Source of the DNA: a virus | Strand: one strand, 5' to 3' | Length of the DNA: 64,000 nucleotides | Virus record (IMG/VR): IMGVR_UViG_3300048599_000816 | Location: 32,545 to 96,544 of that record | In this document: in pieces, positions 8,202 through 52,214 of the stretch | How positions within the stretch are numbered: position 1 is the first letter of the stretch | Layout of the letters: each line of letters starts with the position of its first letter | Notes under the pieces: generated by a model | Database searches by the model: none | Told to the model about the DNA's origin: nothing | The model's input: only the letters and a program-made list of their open reading frames with translations | Made by a program: the position numbers and the translations under genes

Positions 8202-8428
8202 TCTAAATTCCATCTATGACCACATTGACAAACACCAATGCATTCAGGTTTTTTAACGAGATTTATTTCGACGTTTTCTCCGCTATCTCTACATTTTGGA
8301 CATATCAAGTTTTTTACAAACCCAAGTTTTTTCTCAAGCCATTCAACATACTCGATATCAGGCTCTCCATCGCCATTTACCCATGAAATTCCTGTTTCTT
8401 TTTTAAATTCATCGCGATATGAGTACAT
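8198..8428 (-). CDS. zinc-ribbon mini-protein
   Basis: CPKCRDSG...CQCGHRW. Confidence 0.4.
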   Translation of the reverse strand: MYSYRDEFKKETGISWVNGDGEPDIEYVEWLEKKLGFVKNLICPKCRDSGENVEINLVKKPECIGVCQCGHRWNLE

Positions 8429-8429
8429 T

Positions 8430-8831
8430 TTATTTCTTCACACCAAAATAAGGAAGACCACCAGGAAGACTCGACCACATCACTCTTGGTAACAAGAAAC
8501 TTCCAAGATTCAAACCTATTGCTAAAATGCACAACTGTTCCATTACTTTATGATAGCTTGTCCATTGCTCACCAGTTTTTGTAAAACACATATCAAGAAA
8601 TGTATAACCTCCACCTGCATCAGGCTGATATTGAGAGGGTAGTTCTTCTAGACATTTCTTAACATCTTCACGATGGGATTCAAGACGCTCAGGATGAAAT
8701 GCGACTTTTGTAGATATTCCTTCAACTTTTATAGCATTTTCAGGCGGTTTTGTTGTGCCGTTTATTTCCTCTTCAGTGAAGAAACAATCAAGAAACATTT
8801 CTGTCACTTTTTCTGAAGTTAACATTGTCAT
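8430..8831 (-). CDS. hypothetical protein
   Basis: ATGA overlap with upstream ATPase gene. Confidence 0.4.
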   Translation of the reverse strand: MTMLTSEKVTEMFLDCFFTEEEINGTTKPPENAIKVEGISTKVAFHPERLESHREDVKKCLEELPSQYQPDAGGGYTFLDMCFTKTGEQWTSYHKVMEQLCILAIGLNLGSFLLPRVMWSSLPGGLPYFGVKK

Positions 8832-14118: not shown

Positions 14119-15066
14119 CTACCATGTTTGAATTGAACTTGTTTGTGCACCTGTAGAAAAATCTACAGAGACTTTTGAATGATCACCAAAACGAACAAGT
14201 ACATCACTATCAGAAAGACTTTGTACAACTACAATAGAATTTGTTCTACCTATGTGTTTTGTCCCTGGTCTTTTCCAAAAAACAACTGCAGCTGAACCTG
14301 CTCCATAACCTGTATCAGATGTTCCTGCATAATCAGCTCCAAACATAAGAGATGCATTGTATGAAAAATTGTAAAGATTCTGTCCTGTTCCACTTGCATT
14401 AGCAATTACACCCAATGTAGCAATTTTAATTCCAAAGGTTGAACTATTTGAAATTGCTAAATTTCCTCTAGAAAGAACATCAGATTGCGTTGCATATCCA
14501 GAATTACCAGAATAAGCGTCAGTATTTACTGCAAAACTTTCAAGCATATAAATATCACGACTGTCAAGAAGTGATGCATGCAAAGAAGGATTCCATGTTG
14601 CATTTGGATAAGAAGGATCATTCACAACACCTACAATGTGATTCATATTCCAAGCATTTACAAAACTTTTATTTGCATAAGTCTTTGAACGAATATGTTG
14701 AACTCTTGCATTCAAATCATCTCTTGAAACGTTATAATCATATCCTGCTTCATCAATAAAGATACCATGAATTTGTAGTGTGTCCCATTGATCTGTTTTT
14801 GTTTGAAAGTTACCAATAGTTTGGTTTGCTGTAACATATCCAAAAATCTTAATGTCTGGTTTTATTGACTTAAGTCTAGCAATAATTATTTGGGAATTTG
14901 CATAATCAGGATGTGCAGGTGCTTGTACACCATCACCAAAAACACAAACATCATATTTTGCCATATCCATTGCTACATTTTCATTATTCCAACCATTTGT
15001 AGCACTATTGAATGAGTTCAAGTAACCATAATAAACAAGTAAATTTTGAGGAAATGCTGAAGACAT
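14119..15066 (-). CDS. putative TIM-barrel glycoside hydrolase-like protein (spherulin-4-like)
   Basis: LLVYYGY...DVCVFGDG...IKIFGYV pattern; weak by-eye similarity. Confidence 0.35.
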   Translation of the reverse strand: MSSAFPQNLLVYYGYLNSFNSATNGWNNENVAMDMAKYDVCVFGDGVQAPAHPDYANSQIIIARLKSIKPDIKIFGYVTANQTIGNFQTKTDQWDTLQIHGIFIDEAGYDYNVSRDDLNARVQHIRSKTYANKSFVNAWNMNHIVGVVNDPSYPNATWNPSLHASLLDSRDIYMLESFAVNTDAYSGNSGYATQSDVLSRGNLAISNSSTFGIKIATLGVIANASGTGQNLYNFSYNASLMFGADYAGTSDTGYGAGSAAVVFWKRPGTKHIGRTNSIVVVQSLSDSDVLVRFGDHSKVSVDFSTGAQTSSIQTW

Positions 15067-15118
15067 AGTTAACTCCTTTTTAAAGTAGTTAACTATATTT
15101 TATAATAACAAGAGAAAA

Positions 15119-15466
15119 TTAAGCAGTTACCTGTTGTGTAAATTTTTCAAGTTCATAAAAAGTATTAGGATTAATACTTATATGACAACCTAAACGTTTG
15201 AGAAATAGAATATCGTTATCATAACAGTCAGCCATAACAAAAACATGTTGATCTTTGTTAGTACTTTTTATTTCCCAACATACTTCAACTACTTGTTTAT
15301 ATTTTTGGGGGTCAGCATTAACTACGACAAAATCGACATAGTTTTCTTTAAAAGTTTGTGCTGCTTTTTCAAAGTTTGAAACTATAACAGAATCATTGTT
15401 TTCTTTGAAGTAAGCAATAAACATGTCAACAACATCTTGACATTCGTCAACAACTAATATGTTCAT
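15119..15466 (-). CDS. CheY-like receiver-domain-like protein
   Basis: MNILVVDE...DFVVVNAD pattern; weak. Confidence 0.3.
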   Translation of the reverse strand: MNILVVDECQDVVDMFIAYFKENNDSVIVSNFEKAAQTFKENYVDFVVVNADPQKYKQVVEVCWEIKSTNKDQHVFVMADCYDNDILFLKRLGCHISINPNTFYELEKFTQQVTA

Positions 15467-15485
15467 GATTTAATCCTTGATGGGG

Positions 15486-15740
15486 TTATTCACCAGATAT
15501 TGTGTCGAGCCACAAATAGTCATCTGACTTTAAAGCAAAGTAGAAACGATAATTTAACCTTTCTTTGAGAATTGTTAAAAGTTTCTTATACGAATCTTCT
15601 TCGGTGTCTGAAAGAATTGTATTTACGATTTCATCTCTTATGAGACGTAAGGTGCCATTTTGTGAAAGCGATAATAAACTATATTCTGATAAAATTTCTT
15701 TAACTTTTTCAATTGTGTACTCTCTCACATAATCTCCCAA
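15486..15740 (-). CDS. hypothetical protein (probably starts at GTG with SD GGGAGA)
   Basis: Track TTG start; motif 15754-15767 upstream. Confidence 0.35.
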   Translation of the reverse strand: MGDYVREYTIEKVKEILSEYSLLSLSQNGTLRLIRDEIVNTILSDTEEDSYKKLLTILKERLNYRFYFALKSDDYLWLDTISGE

Positions 15741-15773: not shown

Positions 15774-17003
15774 TTAATCAGCCAAAACCAAACTTGGTTC
15801 AATCGAGTATGGATCTATCATAACATGTTTTGTTTCACCATAGATACCCATAAACACATTCAAAATTGCATCTCTCAATAAGTTACATTGACTTTTATCT
15901 TCATTTGTGAACTCGATAAGAGAACCACAACTATGTTCTTTAATTAAATCCTGTATTGCTTTCGCTTTTTCTTCTGTTGAAAGTTGAGCTTTTAATCTAT
16001 TTTCAATTTGTTTGTCAGTGTAATTACGTTTTTTCAACCTTGTCATTCGTGTTTCATCAGAACATTTTACCAAGACAAAATTATTATTAACAAAATTACA
16101 AATTTTTGCTTCAACAAAGAGTGCACTATTAAGTAAAATGATACCTTTTAAACCAATTATTTTTTTTCTAACCATGTGCATCATAGGTTCAAACATGATT
16201 CTATCAAACTCTGCTCTTGCGCTTTCAGCGTCATAATCATCAAACATTAACTGAATTAAGAGATTTATATCGATTTTGTCGTCTTTCGCTGATAAATCAT
16301 TTGCTGATGTAGTAATATTTAATGTAGAAGCAATTGTTGAGCGTACAGTTCTATGTACAGGTTCATTAGATTCTTTTAAAATGTATCTTCCTATTTCATC
16401 CATGTCAATATGATGAAAAACTAGGTTTTCTTTAGAGTTCTTTGGCAATAAATTAAGAATAGATTTTGAAACAAAAGATTTTCCCGAACCAATACCTCCA
16501 GTAACACCCAAAAGATATTGACCCGATATGCGTTCTTCTAAAGCTTGTTTAATAACTAAAGGGACATATTCTGTCAAATTTGATGCATGATTAAGTTGAA
16601 GTTCTTTAACAGCACTTGAACTAATATGCGATAACTTTTGATCAGCAACAAGAATATAAGTATCTAATTCTTGTTTAAAGCCCATATTAATATCAGAAAG
16701 CATTCGTTCAAAATCAAAGTCGTTAGAGTTTCGTGCACCTCTTATTATTGTTTTCACTTCATTTTCATATGCAAAGTCAGCAAGTAATCCTGGATAAGAA
16801 TTTACTGTCACGCGACTTGCAAAACGAGAAAGAACTTTTTGTACTTGTGCAATTCTTTCTTCTTGTGAAAAAGTATAAGTCTTTTTGGGATTAGAGCCTA
16901 CTGCAACAATCAAATGATCAAAAACGTTAAGAGCACGTTCTATAAGATTTATATGGCCATAATGTATTGTATCAAATGATGCTGCAAATATTGCTTTTTT
17001 CAA
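15774..17003 (-). CDS. coaDE: bifunctional phosphopantetheine adenylyltransferase / dephospho-CoA kinase (CoaD-CoaE fusion)
   Basis: N-terminus aligns along its length with CoaD (FDxIHYGH, FDHLIVAV, TFSQEER, IRGARNSNDFDFE, ISSSAVKE); C-half has DPCK P-loop LGVTGGIGSGKS. Confidence 0.8.
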   Translation of the reverse strand: MKKAIFAASFDTIHYGHINLIERALNVFDHLIVAVGSNPKKTYTFSQEERIAQVQKVLSRFASRVTVNSYPGLLADFAYENEVKTIIRGARNSNDFDFERMLSDINMGFKQELDTYILVADQKLSHISSSAVKELQLNHASNLTEYVPLVIKQALEERISGQYLLGVTGGIGSGKSFVSKSILNLLPKNSKENLVFHHIDMDEIGRYILKESNEPVHRTVRSTIASTLNITTSANDLSAKDDKIDINLLIQLMFDDYDAESARAEFDRIMFEPMMHMVRKKIIGLKGIILLNSALFVEAKICNFVNNNFVLVKCSDETRMTRLKKRNYTDKQIENRLKAQLSTEEKAKAIQDLIKEHSCGSLIEFTNEDKSQCNLLRDAILNVFMGIYGETKHVMIDPYSIEPSLVLAD

Positions 17004-17212
17004 TTCCAGCCTCGTTTCTTCCCTTCATCACGTTCTTTCATTTTTGCACGTTGTTTTGCTGAATTAAGCTTTCTTTTCTTCTGCTCACTGGGTTTTTCAT
17101 AATGCTTATATTTTTTAAGCTCAGATAAGACTCCTGAACGTTCACACGTTCTAATGAAACGACGCAATGCTTTGTCAAAATTTTCAGTTTCGCGAATAAT
17201 AATACCATTCAT
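17000..17212 (-). CDS. rpsU: ribosomal protein bS21 homolog
   Basis: IIIRETENFDKALRRFIRTCERSGVLSELKKYKHYEKPSEQKKRK aligns with bacterial S21 ([26 protein letters not shown]...YEKPT..RKR). Confidence 0.8.
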   Translation of the reverse strand: MNGIIIRETENFDKALRRFIRTCERSGVLSELKKYKHYEKPSEQKKRKLNSAKQRAKMKERDEGKKRGWN

Positions 17213-17357
17213 GATACTTTACTTTCTAGATAGTTGTGAAATCATTTATCAGCAACTTTAGTGCTTATAATTTTTATTTTAATTTTTTCTAATTTTAACA
17301 ATTAATTTGCTTTTACAGAAACTTGTTATATAAATAAGTTAAAAAAGAAAGGGAAAA

Positions 17358-17654
17358 ATGATTAATTATAAAGAAACAACTGAAGTTAAAGAAGCATTTG
17401 AGAAGTACAATGCATTCCCTGAAAATGACGAGAGAAGAATTCATTTTTTGTTTGCTGAAGGAAAAGAAGTTGTATTAGAAGTCAAAGTCACAGACTCTCA
17501 ACTTTTTCGTTTAACTTGTCTTTCTATGTTCACTAGTAATTCTCCTCTTTCTGTTCCTGGGGCAGAAATAACTTCTATAAGTCTAGATACAAATGGTAAA
17601 GATAAAGTCATAAAGTTTTTAGAAGAACAACTTCATAATTTAAAGAAACTATAA
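17358..17654 (+). CDS. hypothetical protein
   Basis: Plus ORF with SD AAAGGGAAAA, in divergent intergenic region. Confidence 0.4.
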   Translation: MINYKETTEVKEAFEKYNAFPENDERRIHFLFAEGKEVVLEVKVTDSQLFRLTCLSMFTSNSPLSVPGAEITSISLDTNGKDKVIKFLEEQLHNLKKL

Positions 17655-17806
17655 TGTATCAAGAAGTAGAATGTCCACATTGCAGAAACGAATTTCAAGC
17701 AGAAGTTTTCGTTTCGAACATGTGTCCTAAATGTAGTAAGCCATTTATATGGGATGCTGCATGTGAAGGAACTGAATTTGAATATAACTTTCCAAGTTGG
17801 GATTAA
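17654..17806 (+). CDS. zinc-ribbon mini-protein (50 aa)
   Basis: TAATG overlap with upstream plus gene; CPHC...CPKC. Confidence 0.4.
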   Translation: MYQEVECPHCRNEFQAEVFVSNMCPKCSKPFIWDAACEGTEFEYNFPSWD

Positions 17807-17985
17807 TCTTTCAAAATAAATAACATTTTTTTGTTCTTAGATTTTCCAAAAGGTCTAAGACATGTTGGACAAACAAGAGACTCATAACCTTCAATTAAAG
17901 CAAAACCACAATCTTTACAAACAGAATAATCAAGCGACGTTACTGTTATATTTGGTTGAAACTCTTCATATTCAAATTGAGACAT
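17803..17985 (-). CDS. zinc-ribbon mini-protein
   Basis: CKDCG...CPTC. Confidence 0.35.
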   Translation of the reverse strand: MSQFEYEEFQPNITVTSLDYSVCKDCGFALIEGYESLVCPTCLRPFGKSKNKKMLFILKD

Positions 17986-18243
17986 TTAATAAACTCTTGA
18001 CTTACCTTTAGGTACAGGTGTTCCTTGTTCTTCATGCCAATTGTCAAGATCTTCTTTTGTCAATAACTTTCCGCAAACTTGACAGACAGCTTGAATATAA
18101 GCACATTTTTGACATGGAACTTTCAATCCTTTTTTATAAAGACCAAACCTTCCATGTTTCTCACAATGACCTTGCGCCATAAAAGAAGCTGTAGTTCTAC
18201 ATAATTCTTTATGTTCACTACAAACAATCAATGTAATACTCAT
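17986..18243 (-). CDS. Cys-rich mini-protein
   Basis: Multiple CxxC pairs. Confidence 0.4.
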   Translation of the reverse strand: MSITLIVCSEHKELCRTTASFMAQGHCEKHGRFGLYKKGLKVPCQKCAYIQAVCQVCGKLLTKEDLDNWHEEQGTPVPKGKSRVY

Positions 18244-18422
18244 TTTTGACTTCTTTCATTGACCGTATGTTTCGTTTAAACAAGCTTGACAATCAGTTTT
18301 TGTTTGATCATATTGTCTACCTTCACAACATTGTGGACCACCACAACAATTAGAAGAAGCAGGGTCTGTATCTTTATTGATCAAATCTTCAAGATTTAGC
18401 GAACTTAAAAGCGACTTTGACT

Positions 18423-19640
18423 TCATCGTGAAAAAACTTTTTCTGAAGGTTGAAGATATTGTGCATAATTCGCAAATGTATCACGACACAATTTTACCAT
18501 TCCTTGATCTCCTGTATTTTTCCCGACATCATCAGAAATTTTTACTGTAGGTACAAAAAACTGACCGTAATACCTCCCTACGAGTTTGATAACCATGTTC
18601 AAAGGCTCAATGCCTGGGATATCATTGGAGATAGCTGTACCTACCCCAAAATCACCCTTTCTACCATAAGTAGAAATCAACCATTTATCTATATCAATTG
18701 CTTTTTTATCGTTTAAAGAATCTGAAAAGAATAAATTCTTTGTTTTGTGATTGATTCCAAGAATGTCATAATGTTGTATGAATTTTGTCGCAAAATCAAA
18801 AGGACTTGCACTATCTTGTCGAACACCATCACTCAATTTCGCCCATTTGTAATTAAAAGAATGAAGAAATGCATCTGTTGTGAAAGTATCAGGTAACTCT
18901 ATTGCAAGTGCACCTTTATAGACTTCATACCATTTTTCCATTGCAGCTGTATTTGCATGAATAAAACCGTAAATTGCAGCCATCATAGAATAAAATTCAT
19001 GTGCTTTTGTTCCAATAGGTTTCAGACCAAGAGTCATTGCAAGATACACATTACTTGTACCTTTCAAAGAATCTCTCATATTTGGTACGCTAAGAAAATC
19101 TTCAAGTACATTACAATGATTTTCAAATGAATGTGCACGCCGCGTCCCCATATCATAAAGAGAAATTTCGTTTTCAAGATATCTCTTTGCTTTCGAAACA
19201 TTGATTTCTTTTAAAATTGAACGTTCAGGAATTGGATAACCTTCAAAATATAATTCACTAATAGTATGCATCAATGTTACTTCCCAAGGGAGTGTCCGAT
19301 GCCATAAACCATCAATGTCAAGAAAGATTTCGTTTTTGCTAGATTGGCCTACTGTTACTTCTGAAGGATCATATCTATAATTCTTGAGATAATCAAGATA
19401 CACATGATCAAAGAAAGGGCAATTTTCACGAACAAACTCGAATTCTGATTTTGTAAGACTAAGAATACTATGTCGATCTATAGCATTCCTGAGTTTTGTT
19501 GCAAAATTATCTTCAAATTCTCTTGGTTTTCTTATAAAAAGTCTGTATTTTACACGTTCATTTGGGAAAAGTTTCAATGCAACATTTTGCATCGTGAATT
19601 TATAAAGATCGTTAAAAATTAATGATTGGGGTTTCCACAT
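18423..19640 (-). CDS. pncB: nicotinate phosphoribosyltransferase
   Basis: DLYKFTM, MGTRRAHSF, IGTKAHEF, TTDAFL, VRQDSASP, FFSDSLND, GVGTAISNDIP...PLNMVIKLV all match PncB blocks. Confidence 0.8.
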   Translation of the reverse strand: MWKPQSLIFNDLYKFTMQNVALKLFPNERVKYRLFIRKPREFEDNFATKLRNAIDRHSILSLTKSEFEFVRENCPFFDHVYLDYLKNYRYDPSEVTVGQSSKNEIFLDIDGLWHRTLPWEVTLMHTISELYFEGYPIPERSILKEINVSKAKRYLENEISLYDMGTRRAHSFENHCNVLEDFLSVPNMRDSLKGTSNVYLAMTLGLKPIGTKAHEFYSMMAAIYGFIHANTAAMEKWYEVYKGALAIELPDTFTTDAFLHSFNYKWAKLSDGVRQDSASPFDFATKFIQHYDILGINHKTKNLFFSDSLNDKKAIDIDKWLISTYGRKGDFGVGTAISNDIPGIEPLNMVIKLVGRYYGQFFVPTVKISDDVGKNTGDQGMVKLCRDTFANYAQYLQPSEKVFSR

Positions 19641-19761
19641 CTTTCTCTCTCCTCAATTCAATATTCAGCATCTGGATCAATTCCATTAAACACAAAAAAA
19701 TAATTTTCTAAACTCATTCCTGCAGCTTCTTCGTAAGCTTGGCGATTTGTCATTATTTCAC

Positions 19762-24915: not shown

Positions 24916-25623
24916 TTATCCTTTCCAATAACAATAAAGACAACCATGTGCACATTTTTGCTTCTTAGAAAGTAGTTCATGTTTTTGCGCTAAACATGAA
25001 CATAAAGGTCTTTGAAATCCACCACCTTCAGAAGCATCAATACCAAGAGTAAAACAATCACGACCTGAAACACAACCTGAACAAAAAAAATCAGGTTCTG
25101 CACAAATCTCAACCATTGTTTGTGATTTTATTTGGATTTGCTTAAATGCTTCTTGTCTTAATTCAAGAGGTGCATGAAAACTTGTCCAAGGCAATGCAAT
25201 ATCTTCTTCAGCAAATCTTTTTATGACATGTGGATAATTATCTATAAAAGAAATTCTTACGCGAAAACTTCCAATTTCCTGAGCTTTATTTAATACATCA
25301 AGTGCAACTTGAATCCCTTTTTCTGTTGGAACAATTGGATCGATTCTCAAAACAATACGTTCTGCACCCAGTTTTTTAACAAGGTTTTTCAAACCTATTT
25401 CAATTGCTTCAGTATAGTTTATAACATTTGGTTCAAGTACAGTTTCACCGTACCCTGTAATTGTTGCATTAACTATGACATTTGGGTTTTCAAATTGATC
25501 AAGACGTTCACACAAAAGCACTGGGTTTTTTGAAATAAGAATTGCAGGTTTTTTGTCCTGTACCCATTTATACCAAGCAGTATCTAAAGCAGCATCACCT
25601 CGTTCTGTCACGCCAATCATCAT
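24916..25623 (-). CDS. conserved protein with C-terminal Cys cluster (possible Fe-S/DUF1848-like)
   Basis: CSGCVSGRDC ... CAHGCLYCYW. Confidence 0.35.
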   Translation of the reverse strand: MMIGVTERGDAALDTAWYKWVQDKKPAILISKNPVLLCERLDQFENPNVIVNATITGYGETVLEPNVINYTEAIEIGLKNLVKKLGAERIVLRIDPIVPTEKGIQVALDVLNKAQEIGSFRVRISFIDNYPHVIKRFAEEDIALPWTSFHAPLELRQEAFKQIQIKSQTMVEICAEPDFFCSGCVSGRDCFTLGIDASEGGGFQRPLCSCLAQKHELLSKKQKCAHGCLYCYWKG

Positions 25624-26386: not shown

Positions 26387-26825
26387 AATAATAAACTACA
26401 CCAATCTCTGGTTCAAACTCTATTTGCTCTGCTAAAAATATTGCTTTAATGTTTGTCCAATCTGGATGAAGAAAAGAAGAAGCAACTGTAGTATTAGTTA
26501 TAGGATAAGCACCATCATTTTTAATTGAAATTCCGCATTGATATTTATTGGGCAGAACTACAGTATAATCGTCAAAATTCCAAAGATAAAAATCATTTTC
26601 AATTTTATGTTTTTCTAAAACATCCATGACGTCAAAACGACGTTTTACATTAAGCTCAAGTTTATCTTTAGGAGAAGCACATAAAGGACAAAATTTACTA
26701 TCAGAAACATACTTCTTGTGATCTTCACACTCGCGATTTGTACAAGTATGTATCCATATAGGAACTGTTATATCTTTTGCTTTGATCTTTATATATGGTC
26801 CTAAATAACAACGATTTTGACTCAT
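26379..26825 (-). CDS. hypothetical protein
   Basis: Minus ORF. Confidence 0.4.
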   Translation of the reverse strand: MSQNRCYLGPYIKIKAKDITVPIWIHTCTNRECEDHKKYVSDSKFCPLCASPKDKLELNVKRRFDVMDVLEKHKIENDFYLWNFDDYTVVLPNKYQCGISIKNDGAYPITNTTVASSFLHPDWTNIKAIFLAEQIEFEPEIGVVYYYD

Positions 26826-27817
26826 TATACTCCCATAGCTAAATGTTCCCAGACTTTATCTTCATCTACGCTAATTAAAACAAAATCATCTTTATCATGT
26901 AGTCTTGATCCCCACTCACCATTTTCACAATATGGTTTTGCTCTAACCCAACATCCAATTGTTGGATGCAAATGCAAAACTGCAGCAGTTGGATCATGAT
27001 ATTTTTTGCCATCACGATTTAATTTGAATCTCCACTCCATTCCTTCTCTGAACAATTCAGCAGCTCTATTCTCTGGTTTTATAGACATGATTTTTTTATG
27101 CACTTCAGTGTCATAAACCATATAATGACATACATTTTTTCCAACAAAAAATCTTGACTTTATGTCCATATTTAAAAAATTATGTGCTCCATTACGATCA
27201 CCATTCAAATTAAATGTTGCACATCGCTCTTTACCCTCAAATTTAGGGAGTTTCTTTACGTTAATTTTATGAGTGTCATAACCAATAAATCCACCTTGCA
27301 TGACAGCTTTATTTAAAGGTCGGGGGAGTTCAATATGTCCGAACGTCTTTAAAGGACCACATCCAAAAAACTCTATATTTTCATGTTGTGTTAGAATGTC
27401 AACAGCAAGTTGACGACTTAATACCGCGTTAGAAGAAAAATATGGGAATTTATAAACATCAAGAAGTGCTTTATGAATATTTGTTGGTTGTTCTTTTCTT
27501 CTTCCAAGTTCAGGAACACCAATCAATACGTCAGTTTTTCCAAGTGTTTTTAGCAAGAAATCTACAATAGCGATTTGAGATTCATCACCAGGTGAAATCA
27601 AAATAGCTTTAATATCTACACCTGCAGAAAACAAATAGCACAATGCAAAAAAGTCATCTGGGTCATGACCTATATCAGTTTCAACAATCATTTTTATTGG
27701 TTTATTATCATCAGGACTTGTTTGTGTAATTGTGTTATACCTATAACCACATGAATCACACAACTCCCAACCATTCCAAGTTTTTTCCATAGACTTAAAA
27801 CAACGTCTACAATCCAT
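26825..27817 (-). CDS. nucleoside hydrolase (IUNH)-like protein with N-terminal zinc ribbon
   Basis: Asp cluster ETDIGHDPDD (DxDxGxDD) after CRRC...CDSCG ribbon. Confidence 0.55.
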   Translation of the reverse strand: MDCRRCFKSMEKTWNGWELCDSCGYRYNTITQTSPDDNKPIKMIVETDIGHDPDDFFALCYLFSAGVDIKAILISPGDESQIAIVDFLLKTLGKTDVLIGVPELGRRKEQPTNIHKALLDVYKFPYFSSNAVLSRQLAVDILTQHENIEFFGCGPLKTFGHIELPRPLNKAVMQGGFIGYDTHKINVKKLPKFEGKERCATFNLNGDRNGAHNFLNMDIKSRFFVGKNVCHYMVYDTEVHKKIMSIKPENRAAELFREGMEWRFKLNRDGKKYHDPTAAVLHLHPTIGCWVRAKPYCENGEWGSRLHDKDDFVLISVDEDKVWEHLAMGV

Positions 27818-37513: not shown

Positions 37514-38179
37514 TTATATCATGTATTTGACATTGTGGACTAACTGTTGGAATTCGACTTTTTTTCTTATTTCAGGATCCCAAGCAAGACCCATACTTTT
37601 AAGATCTATAGTTTTTGTAATAGTAGCACCTTCTTTGTTCTCTTCTTTTGCAAGGATCCATACTGTGTCTGCAATAGCCATAGAACTTTCAATATCATGA
37701 CTTACTATAATCAATGTGCTATATTCATTTAAACAAGAAACTTTTACCAAAAGTTGAATTACTTTATCAACCATCAATGTATCAAGACCTGAAAATGGTT
37801 CGTCAAGCAATATAAATTTATTATCAGTTAAAACTTGTTGAAGGATACTTACACGTTGACGTTGGCCACCTGAAAGTTGATCAGGATATTTATTGAGATG
37901 TTCAACAAGCTCAAACTCTTCAGCATATTGTCGTATAGTTTGCTCTATTTCTGTTTGTGAGTAACTTTTATGACTATGTTTTAAACCTGCTTCAAGATTT
38001 TTCAAAATTGTTTTATGTTTAAAAAGAATGTAATTCTGTGGTATAATACCTACTTCTCCAGGCGTTACAGGATGTTGATCTGAGTCTATTAAAACAGTTC
38101 CTGTAGAAGGTTTTGATAAACCTGAAAGAATTTTGAATAATTGAGTTTTTCCAATTCCTGATCTACCATATTTGTCAGA
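37514..38179 (-). CDS. ABC-type ATPase domain, N-terminally truncated or frameshifted
   Basis: Open frame from stop 38180-38182 encodes Walker A GRSGIGKT, Q-loop, LSGGQRQRV, ILLDEP, IIVSHD but has no start codon before the P-loop (first start TTG 38005); overlaps 3' end of ORF 38089-38712 in another frame. Confidence 0.55.
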   Translation of the reverse strand, partial: SDKYGRSGIGKTQLFKILSGLSKPSTGTVLIDSDQHPVTPGEVGIIPQNYILFKHKTILKNLEAGLKHSHKSYSQTEIEQTIRQYAEEFELVEHLNKYPDQLSGGQRQRVSILQQVLTDNKFILLDEPFSGLDTLMVDKVIQLLVKVSCLNEYSTLIIVSHDIESSMAIADTVWILAKEENKEGATITKTIDLKSMGLAWDPEIRKKVEFQQLVHNVKYMI

Positions 38180-44905: not shown

Positions 44906-45448
44906 CTAAACTTTTCCTTTTAAAAAATCTTCAGATGACATCCATGTTTTTGTTTCCATGTCAAATACTTCTTTTGCATGCTTTATCATAACATAAGAAT
45001 GTGTAGTGATTATTACTTGACAATTGTTTTTTGTCAAATTCTTAAAATCATCAAATATCTTTTTTTGATTTGATAAAGATAAACCAGCTTCAGGTTCGTC
45101 TACTATAAGAACAGAATCTTTTAAATTTTTAGGGTGTTGTAAAACTGAAAGCATTGCTTGACCATGTGAAACAAATCTACTATGAAGAGCAAAACCATAA
45201 CTTGCACCAAGATGTTGTATATCCCTTACTCTTGGATTTTGTTTTTCAGTATCAAAAAAAATAAAATCACTGGGTTTATATTTTGCAACACAAACATCTT
45301 TGTTATCTTCTAAATTTGTAATAAGATGTAAAAAGGAACTTTTACCAGAACCATTTTCACCAACAATCACATTAAAGTCTGGTTTAAAAATAAAAGAGAA
45401 AGGTGATATCTTTCTAAATTCTTTTACAAGTTTAAATGATTCAAGCAT
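44906..45448 (-). CDS. ABC/AAA_21-like P-loop ATPase (paralog-like of 8828-9496)
   Basis: Walker A GENGSGKS, Walker B VLIVDEPEAGLS, H-loop VIITTHS. Confidence 0.6.
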   Translation of the reverse strand: MLESFKLVKEFRKISPFSFIFKPDFNVIVGENGSGKSSFLHLITNLEDNKDVCVAKYKPSDFIFFDTEKQNPRVRDIQHLGASYGFALHSRFVSHGQAMLSVLQHPKNLKDSVLIVDEPEAGLSLSNQKKIFDDFKNLTKNNCQVIITTHSYVMIKHAKEVFDMETKTWMSSEDFLKGKV

Positions 45449-51602: not shown

Positions 51603-52214
51603 TTAAAACTTATAACTTCCTGAGGGCTTTCTTACTTTAAGTTGCCACCATACTTCAGGACAATCTTTTAGATTCCACTGAATTTTTCCTTTCTTTGACT
51701 TTACTACAAGTCCTTCATTTTCGGGTTCTTTAATTACCTCGTCATAAAGTCCTTTAAAATTACCAGGGAAAGTATCAGCAAGTTTAAAATGTTTATTTTT
51801 TCTGTTTTCACCAAAGATATCTTCAATCATACGGCGACGAACTTCTAAAGTCTCAAAAACTTGTTCACCTTTATACCAATAAATATCATAGACGTAAACT
51901 TGATGTTTAATGTGTTTTGTCTTTTGATGCAAAAGTTCAGCATCAATATGAGTACCATGAGGAATTTTGAAAGAATCTAATTCATCTAAAAGACTTGGTG
52001 AAGGTTCATATGACAAAACATCTTTATGTCTATTCCAAAAAACAAATCCGTTGAAACTTTTCATTTGAGAAGATTCTACAGGATCATTCCTCAATGCAAG
52101 ACGAGAACCATTTTTCTTTATTTCTGCCCACCAATCAGGATCTTCTGATTTCTCAGCAAAAGTCTGACTTTCAATAGTAATAAGAATAGGTTTATTAGGG
52201 TAAAAATAAATCAT
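51603..52214 (-). CDS. ligase/capping-family nucleotidyltransferase (small DNA/RNA-ligase-like)
   Basis: Motif I AEIKKNGSR (KxNG variant as in RNA ligases), III DAEL, IV EGLVVK; motif 52242-52254 and SD AAGGAG. Confidence 0.5.
   Translation of the reverse strand: MIYFYPNKPILITIESQTFAEKSEDPDWWAEIKKNGSRLALRNDPVESSQMKSFNGFVFWNRHKDVLSYEPSPSLLDELDSFKIPHGTHIDAELLHQKTKHIKHQVYVYDIYWYKGEQVFETLEVRRRMIEDIFGENRKNKHFKLADTFPGNFKGLYDEVIKEPENEGLVVKSKKGKIQWNLKDCPEVWWQLKVRKPSGSYKF

Follow-up and report, generated by a model that had tools for sequence, protein, structure and literature searches.

Why should a virus encode the last two steps of coenzyme A (CoA) biosynthesis as a single protein, close to a ribosomal protein and an enzyme of NAD+ salvage, and do these genes act together? 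The question is raised by positions 15774–19640 of a 64,000-nucleotide stretch of IMG/VR record IMGVR_UViG_3300048599_000816 (positions 32,545–96,544 of that record), which is called the window below. Three open reading frames (ORFs) at this locus, all on the minus strand, had been named from the letters and translations (the sequence-only reading) as a fused phosphopantetheine adenylyltransferase (PPAT, CoaD) and dephospho-CoA kinase (DPCK, CoaE), a copy of ribosomal protein bS21 and a nicotinate phosphoribosyltransferase (PncB), carried by a phage-like genome. These assignments were borne out: the three ORFs are present and intact, their domains are those of the named families, and the window is part of a huge phage of ~0.43 Mb. 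We consider it reasonably probable that, over the long infection by this very large phage, the region serves to supply cofactors and to redirect translation, and we regard the three genes as neighbours by shared ancestry in a mosaic region rather than as a demonstrated functional cassette.

Identity of the CoaD-CoaE fusion, bS21 and PncB

The three genes and their parts lie as follows (aa, amino acids; nt, nucleotides).

15774–17003, minus strand: coaDE, the CoaD-CoaE fusion, 409 aa, with a TTG start
16527–17003, minus strand: CoaD domain, residues 1–159, placed by profile, motifs and fold
15894–16526, minus strand: CoaE-type domain, residues 160 to ~370, placed by profile, motifs and fold
15774–15893, minus strand: C-terminal tail of the fusion, residues 371–409, and stop codon; non-conserved, with a low-confidence model
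17000–17212, minus strand: bS21, 70 aa, full length
17000–17003, minus strand: TTGA overlap of the coaDE TTG start and the bS21 TGA stop, with GAGG 7 nt upstream
18423–19640, minus strand: pncB, 405 aa, with NAPRTase_N and NAPRTase domains

All three products gave family matches far beyond chance (E-values of 1e-14 to 1e-104 on ORFs of 70–409 aa). The N-terminal half of the fusion scored 138.5 bits against the coaD equivalog model TIGR01510 (cutoff 103.3; residues 4–158) and, in a PDB search with the single sequence, matched only phosphopantetheine adenylyltransferases, with E-values down to 6e-30. A family profile searched against PDB also returned PPAT for this half (E 5e-47), with MJ0541 (1f9a, E 2e-4) as the lone marginal match of another kind. 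The PPAT motifs are present (FDTIHYGH, containing the T/HxGH motif; K41; R91; HISSS), and S9, D11, G16, H17, K41, R91, S128 and S129 are invariant across 30 homologues. The full-length AlphaFold2 (AF2) model of the fusion had a predicted local distance difference test (pLDDT) score of 85.3 and a predicted template-modelling (pTM) score of 0.83, and the top 50 PDB matches found for it by Foldseek were all PPAT, with target template-modelling scores (TMt) of 0.81–0.90. Assignment to NadD or another nicotinamide mononucleotide adenylyltransferase (NMNAT) was rejected, with the relevant models scoring at most 25 bits against cutoffs above 110 (TIGR00482, 24.6 vs 112.45 bits; TIGR01527, 22.5 vs 181; TIGR01526, 20.7 vs 341), so that CoaD rather than NadD/NadM stands, as the sequence-only reading had proposed. 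The archaeal/eukaryote-like PPAT model NF001985 gave 23.6 bits against a cutoff of 104. By sequence, profile and fold the N-terminal domain is thus a bacterial-type CoaD, with predicted PPAT catalysis.

The C-terminal half matched Pfam CoaE (PF01121) at 53.7 bits against a gathering score of 27, the CoaE-family match spanning residues 164–357, and carries the motifs of a DPCK: a P-loop (GGIGSGKS, 169–176), IDMD (DxD; D200 and D202), lid arginines R322, R326 and R336, and Q340. The profile of 30 homologues matched only dephospho-CoA kinases in PDB for this half, from E 3e-25 (2if2) to 1e-11, including the DPCK domain of mouse COASY (2f6r, E 8e-16; fold template-modelling score 0.65). An improbable alternative is that this domain is a CoaE-like P-loop kinase of another substrate, in which case the protein would not finish CoA synthesis. 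It draws on a score of 52.9 bits against NCBIfam TIGR00152, under the equivalog cutoff of 65.55, on an identity of only ~20% between the kinase domain and solved DPCKs, and on the CoaE homologues TK1334 and TK2192 of Thermococcus, which lack DPCK activity (PMC6650551). Set against it, besides the exclusive DPCK matches of the profile, are the conserved P-loop, DxD and lid Arg/Gln residues (G169, G174, K175, D202, R322, R336 and Q340 invariant in the 30 homologues, S176 and R326 in at least 90%) and the fold: a model of residues 160–409 (pLDDT 87.9) had DPCKs at ranks 1–26 in PDB (TMt up to 0.80), and the first other nucleotide kinase came at rank 27 (TMt 0.57). That the domain is joined to the enzyme acting one step earlier in the pathway is in itself strong functional evidence for a DPCK, and the archaeal DPCK had been identified by the same reasoning (PMC6650551). 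DPCK activity is therefore strongly inferred from profile, motifs and model, and, since homologues such as TK1334 and TK2192 are without it, we treat it as predicted rather than demonstrated. The tail beyond this domain (371–409) is absent from homologues except that of the closest strain, and its residues 390–409 were modelled with pLDDT <50.

The bS21 ORF matched Pfam Ribosomal_S21 (PF01165) at 61.1 bits against 27, over profile positions 2–54 of 55, as well as TIGR00030 (52.9 vs 28.95 bits) and PHROG 21469 (66 bits). Among the 27 distinct PDB bS21 sequences that matched it, E. coli-type chains, including that of E. coli, did so at E 8e-15 to 3e-13, and the F. johnsoniae chain (7jil) at only 1.7e-4. 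The protein is accordingly a full-length bS21 that is E. coli-like rather than Flavobacterium-like and would be expected to enter ribosomes. A search for bS21 homologues returned 22 matches, whose metagenome-assembled genome (MAG) labels are unreliable.

PncB scored 313.6 bits against TIGR01514 (cutoff 269.55), with Pfam NAPRTase_N at 104 bits and NAPRTase at 142 bits; the stricter subfamily model NF003704 gave 347.8 bits, under its cutoff of 379. PHROG phrog_448 (nicotinamide phosphoribosyltransferase) gave 27.6 bits only. In its best PDB match (2im5, E 1e-68) the motif GTHPHE aligns with GTKAHE of PncB (residues 210–215), the conserved active-site histidine of which is presumably the one that is autophosphorylated in Salmonella PncB. 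By these criteria PncB is a typical nicotinate phosphoribosyltransferase, with the corresponding activity predicted.

Viral origin and indications of the host

The window has a G+C content of ~31% and a coding share of 92.5%, with ~116 ORFs called, 107 of them on one strand. Its PHROG matches include a DnaE-type polymerase (PHROG 405, 815 bits), an NAD-dependent DNA ligase and a CCA-adding enzyme; topoisomerase IA, dCMP deaminase and an FtsK-like ATPase are also encoded, while most ORFs are small and belong to no known family. CoaDE and bS21 proteins identical to those of the window are on record from a 426,911-bp contig of the Joint Genome Institute (JGI), and an IMG/VR viral contig of 424,144 bp, here called the sister phage, shares the local gene order and has a DnaE with 76% full-length identity to that of the window, compared with at most 33% for any deposited phage. 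From the PHROG matches, the identical proteins on the JGI contig and the synteny with this viral sister, we conclude that the window comes from a huge phage of ~0.43 Mb. No nucleotide similarity of the window to deposited phages was found.

That the window is instead non-viral, from a small cellular or episymbiont genome (resembling those of the candidate phyla radiation, CPR, or of DPANN) or another giant extrachromosomal element, with the genes discussed here as housekeeping genes, is barely credible. CoaD-CoaE fusions are typical of DPANN and Patescibacteria genomes, the G+C content is low, no capsid or terminase gene lies within the 64-kb window, and some relatives have been binned into MAGs. 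Yet neither tRNA genes nor any ribosomal protein but bS21 was found in the window, the strong PHROG matches stand among small ORFs of no known family, the sister genome is catalogued as viral, a homing-endonuclease gene is present in some relatives and absent here (see below), and the CoaDE sequences of phages group separately from those of cells.

Shine-Dalgarno-like motifs precede 43 of the 116 window genes (37%), against a background of 5%, and the window shows no enrichment of the Bacteroidetes −7 promoter motif TAnnTTTG (91 found vs 104 expected). A Bacteroidetes host, as in published bS21 phages, was considered and found unsupported on these two counts and because the window bS21 is far from that of F. 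johnsoniae; on the same evidence the window phage differs from the published Bacteroidetes bS21 phages (PMC9723584). The frequent Shine-Dalgarno-like sites and the E. coli-like bS21 suggest that the host is probably not a member of the Bacteroidota. Running counter to this is the best PDB match of PncB, 2im5, which we take to be from Porphyromonas.

Several further genes of the window deserve mention, all on the minus strand. The 878-aa product of 30666–33302 combines a Vault_3 repeat (36.6 bits) with the shoulder domain of the Major Vault Protein (MVP; PF11978, 80.5 bits) and is matched by neither PHROG nor NCBIfam; an MVP-like protein is unusual in a huge phage. At 30400–30666 is a phage-encoded HPr, the phosphocarrier of the phosphotransferase system (PTS; PF00381, 91 bits). 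An R2K-clade ATP-grasp protein (33447–34178, 101 bits), a DUF7873 protein (35403–36173, 246 bits) and a DUF1848 protein (24916–25623, 79.5 bits) are also encoded. Three short ORFs hold partial domains only, namely the ends of an AAA_15/AAA_21 ATPase (44906–45448), the C-terminal part of ABC_tran (37514–38005) and the C-terminal half of the adenylation domain of an ATP-dependent DNA ligase (51603–52214), and may be split or degraded genes.

The fusion family and the conservation of the locus

The sequence-only reading had held the fused arrangement to be typical of eukaryotic COASY rather than of bacteria, which the wider family contradicts. The family is rare and found in prokaryotes and phages: an exhaustive HMMER search of 1.84 billion representatives gave 258 clusters (50% identity) at E ≤ 1e-30, with both domains spanned by nearly all of the best 150 members, and a word-indexed search gave >300 fusion homologues, many on contigs of 200–540 kb, with Sporocytophaga, Bacteroidota, Pacebacteria, Woesearchaeota and DPANN among the source names. 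In the scanned GTDB species genomes ~37 full-length fusions were found, in DPANN archaea, Patescibacteria, Bacteroidota (including the isolate Tenacibaculum sp. M341), Planctomycetota and others, as well as in Kangiella and Pseudomonadales MAGs. Database annotation of the family reads 'pantetheine-phosphate adenylyltransferase/dephospho-CoA kinase' or 'multifunctional fusion protein'. In both cases examined the fusion has a genuine cellular context: it stands amid two-component and glycoside-hydrolase genes on the Sporocytophaga myxococcoides chromosome and has CarS, CorA and PNP among its neighbours in a Woesearchaeota MAG. The occurrence of fusions in genuine cellular prokaryote genomes means that the PPAT-DPCK architecture is not a eukaryotic speciality, and no eukaryotic sequences were seen among the best 120 homologues where the sources gave names. 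The PPAT half of COASY is of the archaeal/eukaryotic type. As that of the window protein is bacterial-type, the prokaryotic fusion is an independent event, convergent with COASY rather than related to it by descent.

In a neighbour-joining tree, which is rough and has no support values, the window fusion falls in a clade made up only of IMG/VR contigs and unlabelled or doubtfully MAG-labelled metagenome contigs, separate from the cell-labelled fusions. This separation of phage CoaDE clades from cellular fusions suggests, within the limits of an unsupported tree, that the fusion has long resided in huge phages. Among deposited phages the best protein matches for both CoaDE and PncB were to the Al-Shayeb huge phages; one of these, of 735 kb (LR756501/LR756503), encodes a fusion 29% identical to that of the window.

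About 25 of the top 150 family members are 560–640 aa long, with an extra C-terminal domain of ~200 aa that has no Pfam or NCBIfam match and that also occurs as a separate gene adjoining CoaDE at 14 cellular and 11 viral loci. A profile of this domain matched the HD proteins 3b57 (E 6e-7) and 5dqv (E 0.07), and the HD metal-site pattern is present, with H31, H35, H61, D121 and D123 invariant and D62 in at least 90% of sequences. The occurrences, in our locus (L) and protein (P) numbering, are as follows.

CoaDE with HD partner, loci: L008, L009, L011–L015, L020, L022, L023, L025, L030–L034, L038–L042, L044, L048, L054, L056
CoaDE with HD partner, proteins: P0271, P0284, P0393, P0295

The profile match and the repeated fusion or adjacency show CoaDE and a putative HD phosphohydrolase to be a conserved module. 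The partner was searched for in the window and is absent, so it informs us about the family rather than about this locus. In a second viral clade (L009, L011–L013, L016), genes for R2K ATP-grasp and NADAR proteins recur near CoaDE. The literature search found no paper describing the prokaryotic and phage CoaD-CoaE family, its HD partner or the coupling of bS21 to coaDE.

Around the three genes of the window the layout is as follows.

19654–19744: site upstream of pncB, empty here; occupied by a 728-nt GIY-YIG gene in L003 and L004
18256–18426, minus strand: small Cys-rich ORF, 56 aa, overlapping the end of pncB by 4 nt; 94% conserved in L003; no Pfam match
17986–18243, minus strand: Cys-rich ORF, 85 aa, with zinc-ribbon-like CxxC pairs; Pfam matches weak
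17803–17985, minus strand: zinc-ribbon-like ORF, 60 aa, the final gene of the pncB unit; 92% identical in L003
17654–17806, plus strand: zinc ribbon ORF, 50 aa, in a variable slot
17358–17654, plus strand: small ORF, 98 aa, in the same variable slot
14119–15740, minus strand: genes downstream of coaDE (84-aa ORF, 115-aa receiver-like protein, conserved 315-aa protein), in the same packed unit as coaDE

Spacing and strand point to two same-strand units, pncB with the three Cys-rich ORFs (gaps of −4, 12 and 0 nt from pncB through the 56-, 85- and 60-aa ORFs) and bS21-coaDE with the genes for the 84-aa, receiver-like and 315-aa proteins (gaps of 19–52 nt downstream of coaDE). Five small ORFs, the three Cys-rich ones on the minus strand and two on the plus strand, separate bS21 from PncB; the plus-strand pair converges on the pncB unit and is parted from bS21 by a 145-nt intergenic stretch. 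As scans for consensus promoters and terminators gave no signal above shuffled controls, the operon structure is read from spacing and strand alone. An Rfam scan of 13–23 kb of the window gave no match. The TTGA overlap and its GAGG are an arrangement that would couple translation of coaDE to that of bS21, and the overlap is retained in the closest relatives (4 nt in L003 and L112, 10 nt in L002). The 'cluster' of the sequence-only reading was overstated: bS21 and CoaDE are tightly coupled, but PncB belongs to another unit beyond two opposite-strand ORFs.

Near-identical and related contigs (nucleotide identity to the window 95% in L003 and 86% in L112) show the order HD/YhaM-like ... pncB – small ORFs – bS21 – coaDE – ... 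– 315-aa gene – Lipase_3. In L111, where CoaDE is only 57% identical, pncB ... bS21 – coaDE is kept with bS21 directly upstream of coaDE, and an acyl carrier protein (ACP)-like gene (8228–8704; PP-binding, GADSLD motif) follows ~0.3 kb downstream of coaDE, then PNKP and RNA ligase genes. ACP needs CoA as its phosphopantetheine donor. The order PncB ... bS21 persists in relatives down to 49–60% PncB identity (L111, L110 and the sister phage L006/L117, 422/424 kb), and in L110 and the sister phage no CoaDE is found there. Pairwise ratios of nonsynonymous to synonymous substitution rates (dN/dS) against L112 and L002 were 0.12–0.14 for coaDE and 0.12 for pncB, and those of bS21 were 0–0.09 (0.07–0.09 against L112 and L002); values of ~0.07–0.14 indicate that all three genes are maintained by purifying selection.

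The region is a mosaic with indel hot spots. Directly upstream of pncB, a 728-nt gene for a GIY-YIG (LEM-3-type) homing endonuclease is found in L003 (2287–3014) and L004, with a GIY-YIG gene at the same position in L005 and L006; the window has 91 nt instead, and the gene is a presence/absence polymorphism. The slot upstream of bS21, filled in the window by the two small plus-strand ORFs (17309–17802), corresponds to 8228–9908 of L112, which encodes a GH5 cellulase, as do L111 and L006. The ACP, GIY-YIG and GH5 cellulase genes of relatives were searched for in the window and are absent. A 399-aa ORF upstream of bS21 in L002 was tested as a PncB and is not one. Homologues of the 85-aa Cys-rich protein, 61–63% identical, closely follow PncB in L005/L006 and precede CoaDE by ~0.7 kb in L001, and the 315-aa protein has a 72% identical counterpart in the sister phage.

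Such synteny bears on whether bS21 and CoaDE, with PncB, act in concert as a functional cassette, for example through phage RNAs capped with dephospho-CoA or NAD that ribosomes carrying phage bS21 would prefer. In its favour, four close relatives retain the bS21-coaDE overlap, L111 has the two genes side by side, bS21 is found no more than 10 kb from CoaDE in L001 (at 10 kb) and L008 (at 3.5 kb), and RNAs capped with dephospho-CoA are reported from bacteria (PMC9326634). We nevertheless hold such a cassette to be very improbable: actual adjacency is limited to one clade, outside which L001 and L008 are the only loci with bS21 near CoaDE; at nine further viral CoaDE loci the flanking 10 kb hold no bS21 and no PncB; the sister phage retains bS21 and PncB without CoaDE; and the fused DPCK would consume dephospho-CoA rather than accumulate it.

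Proposed role and comparison with known systems

We propose that this stretch is an accessory region, for host takeover and auxiliary metabolism, of the ~0.43-Mb phage. Of the bS21-coaDE unit, bS21 would be made first and enter host 30S subunits, favouring initiation on phage mRNAs, and coaDE would be translated in coupling with it via the TTGA overlap. The fused CoaDE would then convert 4'-phosphopantetheine to dephospho-CoA and on to CoA in one polypeptide, a CoA-finishing activity free of host CoaD and CoaE and of their regulation. In E. coli, PPAT is a regulated step that is inhibited by CoA, and phosphopantetheine accumulates. PncB would form nicotinate mononucleotide from nicotinate and phosphoribosyl pyrophosphate (PRPP), the entry step of Preiss-Handler NAD+ salvage, with the pathway finished by host NadD/NadE or by phage copies encoded elsewhere; the NAD-dependent DNA ligase of the phage (47999–49987) would be one clear NAD+ consumer. 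The purpose would be to uphold NAD+ and CoA pools through a long infection with a large genome to replicate.

Several observations weigh against this proposal. CoaDE is dispensable in the sister phage. No other CoA- or NAD-pathway genes were found in the 64-kb window among the scanned ORFs (the Pfam scan took in ORFs of at least 150 aa and a few smaller ones, to which all pathway-gene negatives here refer), so that completion of the pathways is left to the host or to the remaining ~360 kb of the genome. The sub-cutoff TIGR00152 score, the inactive Thermococcus homologues and the silent promoter and terminator scans, all described above, count on the same side. Two weak matches may represent further salvage functions, an inosine-uridine nucleoside hydrolase-like protein (26825–27817, minus strand; 35.4 bits, just over the gathering score) and an AAA_28 P-loop ORF (56142–56696, minus strand) that is weakly NadR ribosylnicotinamide-kinase-like (22 bits).

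Counter-defence had also been suggested by the sequence-only reading: PncB, and perhaps CoaDE, would rebuild cofactors destroyed by immune effectors (NAD+-depleting Thoeris, DSR or SIR2-type systems), in the manner of NARP1/NARP2. We judge this unlikely, and more so than the supply of cofactors to a long infection. Phage NAD+-synthesis genes have been so interpreted (PMC9503650, PMC11662467), and the NADAR genes near CoaDE in the second viral clade are in line with it. A weak Macro-like ORF at 29312–29815 (minus strand; 18.8 bits, under the gathering score of 22), whose homologue in L110 (70% identity) is annotated as Macro, could be relevant to conflicts over NAD or ADP-ribose. However, the product of NADases is nicotinamide and PncB requires nicotinate; none of PncA, NadV/Nampt, NMNAT, NadD or NadE, and none of the NARP1/NARP2 enzymes (Adps and Namat; Nampt/NadV and NMNAT), was detected among the scanned ORFs, which leaves the suggestion without a supporting gene in the window. 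The enzymes of the NARP pathways known so far are reportedly others (Osterman et al. 2024), and the literature search turned up no defence that depletes CoA.

A broader idea, which we hold to be rather improbable, is that the CoaD-CoaE fusion, often with its HD phosphohydrolase, is a self-contained mobile 4'-phosphopantetheine-to-CoA module shared by huge phages and ultra-small symbionts (DPANN, Patescibacteria), that the pool of CoA or 4'-phosphopantetheine (including holo-ACP) is fought over in infection, and that the bS21-coupled coaDE belongs to a co-expressed takeover unit.

Each of the three genes is of a type already known from phages: coaD and coaE have been reported as abundant viral auxiliary metabolic genes (PMC11097641), jumbo phages carry pncB and other Preiss-Handler genes (PMC11662467), and bS21 has been reported in phages (PMC9723584, PMC7162821). 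PncB sequences of deposited phages are 27–44% identical to that of the window, those of the huge phages LR756500, LR756501 and LR756511 being 38–44% identical, and Agrobacterium phage Atu_ph07 and Sinorhizobium phage Phosso have genes annotated as pncB. The locus is thus a real, well-supported and fairly ordinary example, which adds a documented case of very large phages carrying their own cofactor-finishing enzymes and ribosome-modifying proteins and overturns no current view. What it does correct is the idea of the PPAT-DPCK fusion as a eukaryotic hallmark, by placing a bacterial-type family in huge phages, DPANN, Patescibacteria and some Bacteroidota. An active phage enzyme that escaped host regulation would take phosphopantetheine to CoA with a single compact protein, and CoA supply, like NAD+ supply, would then be a limit on the replication of large phages.

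Within the prokaryotic CoaD-CoaE family the window protein is a full-length member, alike in motifs and length, with 35–45% identity to cellular and 50–87% to phage members. It differs from other members in its phage-only clade, its unique tail of ~40 residues and its coupling to bS21, and it lacks the fused or adjacent HD-phosphohydrolase partner of many cellular and viral members. With COASY it shares PPAT followed by DPCK in one polypeptide, and the DPCK halves are homologous, whereas the window fusion, at ~400 aa, has no N-terminal targeting or regulatory region and its PPAT half is of bacterial CoaD type. Standalone bacterial CoaD and CoaE (E. coli type) have the same folds and motifs (T/HxGH and ISSS; P-loop and DxD) but are encoded by two separate, unlinked genes in most bacteria, and the DPCK half of the window protein is divergent. 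The archaeal PPAT fused to the arCOG04076 DPCK (Shimosaka et al. 2019, PMC6650551) joins the last two CoA steps in a further independent event; both its halves are non-orthologous to those of the window protein, and its DPCK is GTP-dependent and related to thiamine pyrophosphokinase. Fusing these steps is thus a recurrent solution.

The NAD-jumbo phages with pncB-nadD-nadE (e.g. Kuafu_71; PMC11662467) are likewise jumbo or huge and encode pncB and an NAD-dependent DNA ligase; among the scanned ORFs of the 64-kb window, by contrast, only pncB was found, with no adjacent nadD or nadE. Phage-encoded bS21 as described previously (huge phages, Al-Shayeb 2020; Bacteroidetes phages, Chen 2022; Mizuno 2019) is, as here, a lone ribosomal protein gene of a large phage, whose presumed effect is to redirect the initiation of translation. 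Chen's phages carry a Flavobacteriia-like bS21 among their structural genes, whereas the bS21 of the window is without an N-terminal extension and heads a metabolic or accessory unit.

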